Source: a virus
Taxonomy: Duplodnaviria > Heunggongvirae > Uroviricota > Caudoviricetes
Direction: 5' to 3' (one strand)
DNA length: 64,000 nt
Virus record (IMG/VR): IMGVR_UViG_2537561935_000012
A program made the translations under genes and the position numbers. The notes under the pieces were generated by a model, which had not been told where the DNA came from, did no database searches, and saw nothing but the letters and a program-made list of their open reading frames with translations. Positions 4,847 to 8,238 of this stretch are shown here, in pieces (the stretch's first letter is position 1; each line of letters opens with the position of its first letter).

Positions 4847-5227
4847 CTACTCCGCAGAACCATACAATCTACGTAACGTGTCGGCGACAGAAGATACAGA
4901 TATCTCGCCAGTCGCAGCGCCTACAGTAAGGTCTGCCAGTTCAGGTGAATCAAATACCTGCACCCCGTTACGGCGTAGAAATAGCAGCGCACTGTTTAGC
5001 GCGGTACGCTTATTGGCATCATTGAATATATGCCCTCTCGCTGTAGCCACCAGGTAGGTGGCGGAGACTTCGAAAAGGTCGGTGATCTCTTCGTAGGCAA
5101 CTCTGGCCTGAACTCTCCCGATAATGGCCTCTGCCCTACCCGGATCAGACATTCCCGGCAGGCCGCCGTAGCGGCTTATATTCGCATCATGAAGCGCAAT
5201 AAGTTCTTCCGGTGATATATGCCTCAT
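4847..5227 (-). CDS. doc: Doc toxin (Fic fold)
   Basis: 126 aa; Fic motif HIFNDANKR; start overlaps phd stop. Confidence 0.95.
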
Positions 5228-5448
5228 TATCGGTTAACCAGTTCCTTGTTGGTGGAGTCCAGGGTGTCAAACAGGGATGCAAATTCAGCATCCAGCGCCG
5301 CTTTTTTGTAGGCTTCGAAAGTAGCCTTGCTGACAATTACTGCTGGCTCACGGCCTCTGCGGGTGATTTCAACCTCTTCCCCGGCTTCAACATTGTTGAG
5401 CACTTCAGAAAGGTTGCCACGCGCGGTACGGAAGTTAATGGATTGCAT
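5227..5448 (-). CDS. phd: Phd antitoxin
   Basis: 73 aa from the second Met, [16 protein letters not shown]...; translationally coupled to doc. Confidence 0.95.
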
Positions 5449-5455
5449 AAACACC

Positions 5456-5480: not shown

Positions 5481-5520
5481 TTATAAACTTCACAGGCATA
5501 AAGCACCAGCACTTTGCAGC

Positions 5521-5910
5521 TTAAATAACCGGACAATCATCAAATTCCCCACTTCGGGCATCATTGATGACATGAGTGATCACACCAAAAACAGCATTAC
5601 TGCCCGTGTATCCATCGTCATCTACTGGTAACGCCTCTTTCTTCCCGGTGCTTAAATCCTCCAGGTGCTGGCGCGGATACTTCCTGTATCTCTTTATGCG
5701 ATATTCACCCTCCATAGCGCACACAAGCAGAGAACCATCAACCGGAGTAAGCGAGGAATCAACCACCAGCAAAGCACCCTGCAATATTCCCTCACGGTGA
5801 TGGCTATCAGCTGCCCGCATGAAGTAGGTCGCTGAAGGATGTCTAATTATCTGCTGATCAAGAGAAATTCGGCTTTCAACATAATCCGCCGCAGGAGAAG
5901 GGAAGCCCAT
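5521..5910 (-). CDS. humD: UmuD'-like protein HumD
   Basis: 129-aa ORF downstream of an SOS box; assignment by size, context and recall. Confidence 0.8.
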   Translation of the reverse strand: MGFPSPAADYVESRISLDQQIIRHPSATYFMRAADSHHREGILQGALLVVDSSLTPVDGSLLVCAMEGEYRIKRYRKYPRQHLEDLSTGKKEALPVDDDGYTGSNAVFGVITHVINDARSGEFDDCPVI

Positions 5911-5928
5911 AGCGTTTTACCTCAATGA

Positions 5929-5948
5929 TACTGTTTATTCATACAGTA
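5929..5948. promoter_or_regulatory. LexA (SOS) box
   Basis: TACTGTTTATTCATACAGTA, CTGT-N8-ACAG, 19-38 bp upstream of humD. Confidence 0.75.
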
Positions 5949-6033
5949 TACATTGAAAAGGCATAGTTTGTGAAAGCGGGGTTTGTAGGCGCGCCACGCT
6001 GGGGGCTAATCACATTTCTCCCCCATCTTGCCG

Positions 6034-6285
6034 TTATTTTTTTGGTGCATCCTCGTTCTGATACACCGGATCGCTCCCTTTTGGCAACTGGAGGCTTAAC
6101 TGCCGATAGTGCCGTAACCGTTCCATGAAATAGGTGCGCAGATTCTCTGGTTGCTCGCGGGCTACCTGTTCAGCTATGACAGGTATGTTCAATCGCTCTT
6201 TGTACGCCACACCGCTGGCAGCCAGATCAACGTTAACCTTATCCCGTTCTTCCTGACTTTTAGCTGCAATATTCCAATCGTGCAT
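6034..6285 (-). CDS. hot: DNA polymerase III theta-subunit homolog (Hot)
   Basis: 83 aa from an internal Met; [20 protein letters not shown] resembles HolE. Confidence 0.8.
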
Positions 6286-6734
6286 ATCAAATCCCATCCA
6301 GAACAATTGCGTAACGACTATTATTTAACCAGCAAAGTAACTTTTAATTTTTTTTCTTTTCCCATTGATTTTTGTGCACAGCTTATCTGCCTTGCCGTGC
6401 GCAGAATCAACTTTTTTCTTCCTGATTTATCCACAAAGTTATGCACTTGCAAGAGGGCCATTTTCTAAATATTGTGATGTTTCACAAATGAAATGAATTT
6501 TGATTAATGAAGATAAGGAGAAAATTTGAGATGCAATCATGACGTTAATAGATAGGGTCTGCATTACAGACCCCATCCGCATCAAGGAATTAGCCGTTCC
6601 CTGATGTTGTTCCGAAAACATGTGCCGTAAGCTCACGTTAACGACTTTCTTTCACCGAATCCAACTATATAGGGGTTGGGTTTCTACGTCAACGTGAGCA
6701 AGTGCTCCTTTACATTTGACAAGGAACCACCTTA

Positions 6735-6872
6735 ATGACTGCTTTTTTTCAGTTCCTGAGTGCATTTTTAGATGCGCCTGTTATTAGCCAGATTCTGGCG
6801 ATCATCCTCATCATCGTTTTGATTTTGCTTTTAAGGTCAGTAAAAAATGGAATTATGCACTGGCTTACTTAA
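6735..6872 (+). CDS. small hydrophobic protein, 45 aa (candidate)
   Basis: AAGGA RBS 8 nt upstream; one TM-like helix; opposite strand inside a 640-bp AT-rich gap. Confidence 0.3.
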   Translation: MTAFFQFLSAFLDAPVISQILAIILIIVLILLLRSVKNGIMHWLT

Positions 6873-6946
6873 TGTTCAGTGAAACATTAAAATCTCCTTG
6901 ATGTGGAAACAATCATTTTCTGTATGTGCTGGTGGGTACCTGTAGT

Positions 6947-7309
6947 TCAGCTTTCGTTGGCATTTAACTTCGTCTTTGCTTTCTCCACCAGCAACTTCCA
7001 GATGCCTATTTCATTAGCAGCCGCCTTGATGGCGGCATAAAAAGCATCTTGCTGATCGTAACGCTGAATCTGTTTTTTCAGTTTTGCCTCCACCAATTTA
7101 ATTTCATTACGTGCTTTCTGAAGCCGCAGCGCCGCCCGGTTACGTCTGTTCTTGTATAGCGCGTTAATCTCTGATAATTGCTTTAATTTACCAGCCTGAC
7201 TGCGGATTATCGCCTCTCTGACTTCTGCCGTGCGTCTCATCTGATCTCTTAAGAGTTCACCGTTTTCGATAATTCTTTCAAGGTGTTTGATGTGATCTGC
7301 AACTCTCAT
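6947..7309 (-). CDS. hypothetical coiled-coil protein
   Basis: 120 aa, heptad-rich; 4-nt overlap with upstream ORF. Confidence 0.5.
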   Translation of the reverse strand: MRVADHIKHLERIIENGELLRDQMRRTAEVREAIIRSQAGKLKQLSEINALYKNRRNRAALRLQKARNEIKLVEAKLKKQIQRYDQQDAFYAAIKAAANEIGIWKLLVEKAKTKLNANES

Positions 7310-8238
7310 ACTTCACCCTCGCTTGTATCGCCAGCATCCACCAGCGGCAATAAAGCCCTGGCCATCTTATGAACCAATAGTGCATCAATAATGCCAAGCG
7401 TATGCCCCGGCTTAATGTTTAATGCCGCCTCAAGGTGACACCTTTCCAGGCCACTTTTCTCGGCTTGTTTATGATGATCTGGTGTAATAACGTCGCCCAA
7501 AACACGGCTAATTCTTTCTCGTAATTGCTGGGTGCCAGCACACTTGATCGCTGTATCGTGGAGACGGTTAACCAGTTCGCGATAAACATGCGGCTTAATT
7601 CGGATACGTTCACCGGTGACGCCCTTTCCTGGTGCTGGCACCGAACTATCCGGAATATCCGGATAGTTGCCAGCCTCGTAAGCTACCCGCAGCCAGTGCA
7701 TGAATGTTTCAGTGGACACACAACCACAGTCCACATCGATTTTCCCGCGTTGCTGTTCCAGCCATTGCCCAAAATCCAACCTGTAAGTCTTACTTTCAAG
7801 TTCATCACCATTGAACTCGACTTTCTGCGACGCTATGAGAGCTGATTCGTATTGTTCGCGAGTGACAACTGACTGGTATTCATCGCTATCAAGGTCACCA
7901 ATTGGAAGCTCAATCTCACAACAAAAATTGCGCCCAAAGAAAGTGTCTTTTTTGTGGTCTGAGCCAAAAGCAAAAGTCGCGCATGGTGCCATTAAATTGA
8001 CACTGGGTAGGTAACAATAACTCATTCCATCAGGCCACCCGCCGCACTTAGGCAGTTCCTTCACTAACAAGTCGATAAACTTCATTTTTTTATCATCTTT
8101 GCAAGCCGCCAAAGCCATTTGGGCAAGTGCCAATACTTCATCTGCCGTATATCCAGCACCGTGACCATACATTTCGATACGGGAAATAATCTCTGATATA
8201 CGCTCTTCAGTGATTCTGGTCATTTCTTTTTGCGCCAT
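7306..8238 (-). CDS. hypothetical protein
   Basis: 310 aa, no recognisable motif; overlaps neighbours on both sides. Confidence 0.55.
   Translation of the reverse strand: MAQKEMTRITEERISEIISRIEMYGHGAGYTADEVLALAQMALAACKDDKKMKFIDLLVKELPKCGGWPDGMSYCYLPSVNLMAPCATFAFGSDHKKDTFFGRNFCCEIELPIGDLDSDEYQSVVTREQYESALIASQKVEFNGDELESKTYRLDFGQWLEQQRGKIDVDCGCVSTETFMHWLRVAYEAGNYPDIPDSSVPAPGKGVTGERIRIKPHVYRELVNRLHDTAIKCAGTQQLRERISRVLGDVITPDHHKQAEKSGLERCHLEAALNIKPGHTLGIIDALLVHKMARALLPLVDAGDTSEGEV

Follow-up and report, generated by a model that had tools for sequence, protein, structure and literature searches.

A conserved, probable gene for a 45-residue membrane peptide between hot and pmgV of P1-like phage-plasmids and its possible control by a leader antisense RNA

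What is encoded in the 640 bp that separate hot from pmgV in P1-like phage-plasmids? The question was raised by a stretch of 64,000 nucleotides from the IMG/VR record IMGVR_UViG_2537561935_000012 (the window), which is a P1-like phage-plasmid; P1 and P1-like phage-plasmids match the region considered here at 96–100% identity. With the window read as given, the gap has doc, phd, humD and hot (6034–6306) on its left and pmgV (6947–7309), followed by a pmgT-like gene, on its right, all on the minus strand. The gap itself (6307–6946) had been described in an initial annotation as AT-rich and free of long open reading frames (ORFs), and this was borne out: its GC content is 38.0% against 47.4% for the window, which places it in the lowest 2.4% of segments of 640 nt, and no ORF lying within it exceeds 65 amino acids. 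The P1 reference NC_005856 does annotate the gap, with upfO (6321–6461), upfN (6439–6636) and upfM (6652–6765), all on the minus strand and all without an assigned function, and also marks a late promoter, LPhot, DnaA boxes and several predicted sigma-70 promoters. The three upf genes are annotated in AF234172 as well. An older record, M95666, marks an 'nrdA-like promoter', including a DnaA box, in the direction of the window plus strand. On this strand lies an ORF of 45 codons (6735–6872), which is not annotated in the P1 reference and appears as a hypothetical protein in the records of JL22 and SJ46. In RefSeq plasmids the Prokaryotic Genome Annotation Pipeline (PGAP) calls this ORF (WP_000123562.1, hypothetical protein) as the sole gene between hot and pmgV and calls none of the upf genes.

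Copies of the region were searched for in plasmids, phages, E. coli genomes, IMG/VR (with three DNA patterns) and metagenomes (with peptide patterns). Several hundred copies were found altogether, and no more than three lineages are represented among them: tier 1 (P1 type, ~99–100% identity), tier 2 (P7 and SJ46 type, ~89–92%) and tier 3 (~77–79%). No GTDB species representative was matched by DNA pattern or by peptide pattern, and a word search in 5.8 billion proteins as well as an exhaustive HMMER search in 1.8 billion representatives yielded nothing beyond copies of the same peptide with frameshifts or truncations. The only carriers of the locus are P1-like elements of Escherichia, Salmonella and Shigella, and, since there are only three lineages, comparative power is limited and strong covariation statistics are impossible.

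The ORF encodes the peptide MTAFFQFLSAFLDAPVISQILAIILIIVLILLLRSVKNGIMHWLT and is preceded by the ribosome-binding site AAGGA (6721–6725), 9 nt before the ATG. Re-translation and computed hydropathy upheld the ORF as first annotated, with its coordinates, sequence, ribosome-binding site and single hydrophobic helix. The grand average of hydropathy is 1.62, the best hydrophobic stretch of 19 residues begins at residue 15 and basic residues follow the helix; a small (<60 amino acids) hydrophobic peptide with its own ribosome-binding site, a generic mark of type I toxins, is present. Conservation across P1-like elements, by which the initial annotation had wanted its proposal judged, was indeed found: the ORF has exactly 45 codons and an intact frame in all three lineages, with an amino-acid identity of 60% between tier 1 and tier 3. 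Window and tier 3 differ by 31 substitutions in the ORF (24% divergence), and the ratio of non-synonymous to synonymous substitution rates (dN/dS) is 0.45 overall and 0.28 for codons 1–24. When the same substitutions were randomised, 13.5% of the sets left the ORF open. All four insertions or deletions (indels) in the window/tier alignment of 6699–6946 fall outside the ORF, one of them 10 nt before the start codon and another directly after the stop codon. In tier 3 the ribosome-binding site reads GAGGA and the spacing of 8–9 nt is retained despite a 1-bp deletion at 6725. The frame is intact in all rows of the alignment but two, each of which has a 1-nt indel that could be a sequencing error or a natural inactivation; the records are those of phage vB_EcoM-813R1 (at window position 6743) and pLKSZ04 (near 6833), and one of the indels falls in a run of seven T. 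Besides the frameshift product of pLKSZ04 (P0004), the protein collections contain three truncated or frameshifted variants of the peptide (P0001–P0003), which point to further disrupted copies of the ORF. Each signal of constraint is modest alone, together they are fairly convincing.

How do the three genes of the P1 reference compare? All three are located in the same gap as the 45-residue ORF but on the other strand, and their frames are not conserved. Translation of each frame in each lineage revealed stops or frameshifts in all of upfO, upfN and upfM in tier 3 and, already in tier 2, a changed frame in upfO and upfN. No family was found for upfN, upfO or a short leader ORF described below in Pfam and PHROGs, or for upfM in Pfam; upfM does match a PHROG family, which was probably built from the same P1-like annotations. 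CRISPR interference (CRISPRi) directed at upfN and upfO left plaquing efficiency unchanged (PMC10695390), and where that paper cites an earlier deletion survey, upfM, upfN and upfO are given as non-essential for lytic growth. Judged by their sequences, upfO, upfN and upfM are probably not genes, and the 45-residue ORF is very probably a gene that was missed by the P1 reference, though already called by RefSeq; the two statements combined, a real gene on the plus strand and no upf genes opposite to it, we hold to be likely. The predicted promoters P1upfM and P2upfM of P1 were considered as conserved features and discarded, for their hexamers are weak and, in an alignment inspected by eye, substituted or deleted in tier 3. 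The record of phage P7 lists overlapping 'putative transmembrane' ORFs on the minus strand (upf91.4, upf91.6 and upf91.7), which look as doubtful as upfM, upfN and upfO.

From where could the plus-strand gene be transcribed? A segment of 115 bp (6351–6465, plus strand) is 83% identical to the chromosome in all 5426 complete E. coli genomes. The K-12 match is located immediately upstream of nrdA, over ypaB (668–811 of the E. coli piece L067), in the orientation of the window plus strand; the P1 counterpart of ypaB is the minus-strand upfO. Both DnaA boxes of the nrdA promoter are present in tandem, TTATCCACA (6427–6435, plus strand, a perfect consensus) and TTATGCACT (6439–6447); they are annotated in P1 and M95666 and are invariant across all tiers and K-12. 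Ungapped alignment to the K-12 nrdA promoter (TTGCAA, 17-nt spacer, TATCTT) predicts a plus-strand promoter of the same geometry, with TTGCAA (6447–6452) as −35 and TATTGT (6470–6475) as −10 hexamer, separated by 17 nt, and both hexamers are retained in all three tiers amid varying surrounding bases. By homology, boxes and hexamer geometry this is a putative nrdA-type DnaA-box promoter. The 83%-identical stretch shares both boxes, the −35 hexamer and the promoter geometry with the E. coli nrdAB promoter region, but homology stops at the −10 and the transcribed part downstream is specific to P1-like elements. Since no better plus-strand promoter was found in the gap closer to the ORF, the mRNA would start near 6482 and have a 5′ leader of ~250 nt. 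As upfO and its counterpart ypaB both overlie the nrdA-type promoter and the DnaA boxes, their conservation is explained without a coding role, which suggests that it reflects the promoter elements. About 100 plasmid records match only 6329–6454 of the window and belong to a different phage-plasmid family, rep_cluster_488. In one of them, NZ_CP024264.1, the nrdA-like promoter with a DnaA box (piece L083, 2560–2716) adjoins a humD-like gene and is followed ~75 nt downstream by a strong intrinsic terminator, aaaaagcccagttgactaggctgggcttttt, an arrangement that suggests a short RNA from the captured promoter; farther downstream (3002–3140 of L083) an ORF of 27 or 31 amino acids, MVNLLFKIVPPMFAIIKAIIEYVNQRP, has its own terminator-like hairpin.

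The predicted leader (6483–6734, plus strand; z = −2.35 for its fold) contains the most conserved block of the gap (6510–6698). Its divergence from tier 3 is 8%, compared with 24% for the 45-residue ORF and ~35–39% for the adjoining non-coding stretches, and only two substitutions are found in 6612–6698. The block begins with 6510–6533, which are invariant and adjoin a highly variable stretch; they include the invariant leader ribosome-binding site TAAGGAG (6514–6520, plus strand) and the ATG (6531) of a mini-ORF that reads MQS-stop in the window and is a mere start-stop (ATG-TAA) in tier 3. A second leader ORF of 21 codons (6539–6604, plus strand) starts in an overlapping ATGA and is open in all tiers. 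Its residues differ among the tiers at 7 of 21 positions, so that any constraint would be on translation and not on the peptide. A long imperfect plus-strand hairpin (6633–6698) is predicted in all tiers; a U·G pair within it would become a C·A mismatch on the minus strand, and its variable sites are in the loop or keep the pairing (6632, G-C to G·U). In the predicted stems, pairing survives 6 of 10 changes. The 3′ region of the predicted mRNA (6873–6946), convergent with pmgV, could pair with the mRNA 5′ end: GAAAUGA (6490–6496) and UCAUUUU (6914–6920) are paired in the minimum-energy folds of all tiers, and in tier 3 the pairing is extended to a helix of 14 bp with an A-U to G-C change (p ~0.016 against shuffles).

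The hairpin at 6633–6698 encloses a near-consensus sigma-70 promoter on the minus strand, with TTGACG (6692–6687) as −35 and TATAGT (6669–6664) as −10 hexamer, a spacer of 17 nt and 10 of 12 consensus positions. Its hexamers are identical across all three tiers, and P1 annotates it as the predicted promoter PupfN; it is this promoter that we propose for an antisense RNA. The candidate RNA (~6660 to ~6545, minus strand) has ~115 nt, is complementary to the leader and its mini-ORF and contains no conserved ORF, upfN being broken in tiers 2 and 3. The computed fold has three hairpins and −44.7 kcal/mol (z = −4.62), and none of 200 shuffled sequences was as stable. The consensus structure comprises 39 pairs; one of them shows a double compensatory change, and several switch between G·U and A-U. 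The compensatory change is located in a terminator-like hairpin (6550–6578, core GGGTCTG/CAGACCC at 6555–6573), in which tier 3 has C-G in place of the T-A pair formed by 6558 and 6570. On the minus strand this hairpin is followed by UAUCUAUU; there is no U-run on the plus strand, so it would terminate minus-strand transcripts only. A second hairpin (6580–6606) has a 10-bp stem, invariant but for the closing pair, and a 7-nt loop with three substitutions in tier 3. Two G·U pairs of the minus-strand fold would be A·C mismatches on the plus strand, which favours a minus-strand RNA for these hairpins. In sum, both strands look transcribed and structured. Searches with Rfam covariance models, which include Sok, RdlD, IstR and OhsC (5500–7800, both strands, E ≤ 10), yielded matches at chance level only (14–18 bits compared with thresholds of 33–70, E values of 1.2–5.7), and neither BLAST nor a covariance model found the RNA or the ORF a second time in the window or in another phage-plasmid family. 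Promoter, structured RNA and hairpin with UAUCUAUU are the sequence signals of a candidate antisense gene; the complementarity presumes that the plus-strand mRNA starts at the nrdA-like promoter, as is predicted. An antisense RNA overlapping the ORF had been anticipated by the initial annotation. A good candidate for such a gene was found, but it lies opposite the mini-ORF of the ~250-nt leader and does not overlap the 45-residue ORF. The leader sequence GACUUUCUUUCAC (6643–6655) resembles the start of the ORF, GACUGCUUUUUUUCAG (6738–6753), and the 5′ part of the candidate RNA, UGAAAGAAAG (6654–6645), could pair in trans with codons 3–6 over 10 bp, 8 of which are kept in tier 3; in such U- and A-rich sequences this may be chance.

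A hydrophobic peptide, a structured leader with a leader ORF, a conserved convergent promoter and an RNA that would pair with the leader together make up a type I-like layout. Tier 2 retains promoter, block and ORF without hot, and tier 3 retains them without the adjacent pmgV, in one case with a type I restriction-modification system in its place; the module thus behaves as a self-contained unit. That the region is non-essential for lytic growth (PMC10695390) is as expected of an accessory module. P1-like elements have several variable regions, and the stretch from pmgT to humD belongs to them (PMC9603915); this variability, together with the dispensability for lytic growth, fits an accessory module as well. 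The type I toxin-like function is our leading hypothesis, and we suggest tentatively that the gap is a self-contained type I toxin-antitoxin-like module of a new family. The mechanism may be as follows. The captured host nrdA promoter with its two DnaA boxes would transcribe the plus strand from ~6482 into an mRNA with a structured leader of ~250 nt, which carries a strong ribosome-binding site and the mini-ORFs (6531 and 6539–6604), followed by the 45-residue membrane peptide. The near-consensus promoter within the leader (6692–6664) would fire in the opposite direction and give rise to the structured non-coding RNA of ~115 nt (~6660 to 6545), ending at the hairpin that terminates the minus strand only. 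This RNA would match the leader in perfect complementarity, across the mini-ORF and the bases that directly follow its start codon, and might block leader translation, trigger cleavage of the duplex or interfere with the convergent promoter. Any such action would keep synthesis of the peptide off, comparable to Sok, which acts via mok, and to Rdl in ldr; upon loss of the antisense RNA the peptide would be made. Toxicity of the peptide is an assumption of the model. In this full form, a previously unrecognised type I toxin-antitoxin family of P1-like phage-plasmids with an mRNA from the captured nrdA promoter and its DnaA boxes and a ~115-nt leader antisense RNA that restrains the toxin, the proposal is more doubtful.

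How does this arrangement relate to known type I systems? In hok/sok, the leader ORF mok precedes hok, the antisense RNA Sok acts through mok and the ends of the mRNA pair (tac/fbi). The candidate module shares with hok/sok (parB of plasmid R1) the plasmid-type replicon, a single-helix membrane peptide of ~50 amino acids, a long and structured predicted leader in which an ORF precedes that of the peptide, a predicted convergent antisense promoter inside the leader and a candidate antisense RNA that would cover the start of the leader ORF and not the toxin ORF, and the possible pairing of the 5′ and 3′ ends recalls tac/fbi. There is, however, no sequence similarity and no match to the Hok/Gef profile (PF01848), the leader ORF stops 130 nt short of the peptide ORF, neither overlapping nor coupled with it as mok is with hok, Sok has 64 nt compared with ~115 nt for the candidate RNA, the periplasmic C-terminal domain of Hok has no counterpart in the 45-residue peptide and the promoter is a captured host nrdA promoter. 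A hok-like 5′–3′ fold-back was discarded as a feature of the module, for, though paired in the minimum-energy folds, it beats shuffled sequences in tier 3 only. With ldr/rdl the module shares a peptide of toxin size whose hydrophobic helix is N-terminal and whose tail is basic (Ldr 35 amino acids, P1 peptide 45) and, as a candidate, an antisense RNA opposite the 5′ leader and not the ORF. True Ldr sequences scored 86–94 bits (1e-24 to 1e-27) with the Ldr profile (PF13940), and three variants of the P1-type peptide scored nothing. Locally, LDAPVISQILAIILI of the peptide aligns with LAAPVIAGILASMIV of LdrD (8 of 15 identical, pairwise E = 0.001); the resemblance is weak and a lead only. Ldr homology was dropped as a family assignment, given the missing PF13940 match and the profile comparison mentioned below. 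LDR loci are not among the chromosomal matches: a query with ORF and block found a single chromosomal place in the 5426 genomes. In tisB/istR-1, zorO/orzO and shoB/ohsC the antitoxin RNA pairs with the 5′ leader far from the toxin start codon, and the candidate RNA would likewise target the leader far upstream. In these systems transcription is divergent and complementarity extends over ~20 nt, whereas it would be full over ~115 nt here, and neither sequence similarity nor an Rfam match connects them to the candidate module.

Several observations weigh against a type I module. The 45-residue peptide matched no family in Pfam (including Hok_Gef and Ldr_toxin), NCBIfam, PADLOC or PHROGs (in Pfam at E ≤ 10 there were only weak unrelated matches driven by its hydrophobic stretch), a profile-profile comparison with Ldr gave a probability of 7%, and no paper was found on transcripts, translation, small RNAs, a type I toxin or toxicity in this region of P1. 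The fragment in which the original P1 addiction screen found phd-doc (M95666) also contains the 45-residue ORF. The distance of 130 nt between the stop of the leader ORF (6604) and the start of the peptide ORF (6735) means that direct translational coupling in the manner of mok/hok cannot apply. Predicted pairing of the ribosome-binding site of the ORF is not above average (0.36–0.49 unpaired). Sequestration of this site by pairing of GUUCC (6607–6611) with GGAAC (6723–6727) was considered and rejected, as it occurs in the fold of the window but is not conserved. Predicted stems are not depleted of variable sites (Fisher p = 0.8), pairing of the mRNA ends is significant in tier 3 only and not in the window or tier 2, no canonical terminator for the plus-strand mRNA was found in the gap, and the terminator-like hairpin of the antisense RNA has a weak U-tract that was missed by a general terminator scan. 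The evidence from conservation is essentially one informative comparison, that of tier 1 or 2 with tier 3, and the genomes are mosaic: between the window element and tier-3 plasmids doc and phd (4847–5454) are 99.5% identical, humD 95%, hot 88% and the gap ~79%. These identities place recombination boundaries within a few hundred bases of the module, and the conserved leader block could in part be a recombination patch. Of the likeness to type I toxin or small membrane-protein loci that had been drawn in the initial annotation, the small membrane-protein gene stands, with conserved frame, length, ribosome-binding site and hydrophobicity and a PGAP call, and so does a candidate antisense RNA; a toxin family was not matched and sequestration of the ribosome-binding site is not evident.

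A serious rival, if in our estimate rather unlikely, is that the ORF encodes a real but non-toxic accessory membrane protein (a 'moron') expressed in lysogens from the nrdA-type promoter. Such a peptide could modulate a membrane protein or exclude other phages, and the convergent promoter would only tune its level, through the antisense RNA or by transcriptional interference. The evidence for the reality of the ORF and the autonomy of the module applies equally to this explanation, which also agrees with the lack of a matching toxin family, with a ribosome-binding site for which, in contrast to typical mRNAs of type I toxins, no sequestration is predicted, with an ORF that is intact in nearly all copies and with a region that is dispensable for lytic growth. 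What speaks for a toxin instead is the unusually heavy control that a conserved structured leader of 250 nt and a perfectly conserved antisense promoter would represent for a harmless peptide of 45 residues; a conserved structured leader with a built-in antisense promoter is the pattern around toxic peptides as in hok/sok and ldr/rdl. Moreover, the weak constraint on the peptide (dN/dS 0.45) suits a membrane-disrupting helix better than a specific binding partner.

The conserved block might, on the other hand, be regulatory DNA or RNA for the minus-strand neighbours, the plus-strand ORF being incidental or weakly functional. The hairpin at 6550–6578 would then terminate the pmgT-pmgV operon, and the promoter at 6692–6664 would supply hot in lysogens via a structured leader. 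P1 annotates this promoter as feeding minus-strand genes, the pmgT operon reads into the gap, the hairpin would terminate minus-strand transcription only and survival of the ORF alone is not decisive, given the 13.5% expected by chance. Yet block and ORF are kept in tier 2, which has no hot, and in tier 3, which has no pmgV; the stretch from the block to hot is among the most variable of the gap and has a 23-bp insertion; and the ORF keeps its ribosome-binding site, frame and length while indels accumulate beside it. We consider this explanation improbable. That the P1 reference is right, with upfM, upfN and upfO real and the plus-strand ORF a chance frame in AT-rich DNA, is very improbable: the annotation in two records, the PHROG match of upfM and the annotated counterpart ypaB of upfO are outweighed by the broken frames in tiers 2 and 3, the missing PGAP calls, the promoter under upfO/ypaB and the results from CRISPRi and deletion (PMC10695390).

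P1 serves both as a reference phage and as a workhorse of the laboratory, and resistance genes, blaCTX-M among them, are spread by P1-like phage-plasmids (PMC9603915). If the type I toxin-like module is real, P1 would have a second addiction or abortive-infection module for maintenance or defence besides phd-doc, and its toxin potential would be wired to host DnaA and replication status. Three genes of the P1 reference annotation of 2004 would be on the wrong strand, with upfM, upfN and upfO giving way to one plus-strand gene and one small RNA, and the locus would be a clear case of a mobile element that captured a host cell-cycle promoter (nrdA with its DnaA boxes) for a small gene of its own. 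Should the peptide be harmless, the locus would still be a compact example of control by a convergent promoter and an antisense RNA in a well-studied phage.

The surroundings of the module vary further. In plasmid NZ_AP026785.1 an insertion sequence, IS1A, interrupts the gap of a copy that is 100% identical in all else, and the match falls into two pieces that span 1416 bp. Where P1 has hot, phage P7 has a copy of IS903, left of the module and a few hundred bases from it. The window contains no lxr between humD and hot (5910–6034): the two genes are ~124 bp apart, compared with ~750 bp in P1, which has the lxr gene for 190 amino acids there. The LexA box tactgtttattcatacagta (5930–5949) upstream of humD is still present, and the arrangement of humD and hot without lxr recurs in vB_EcoM-813R1, the nearest phage record.

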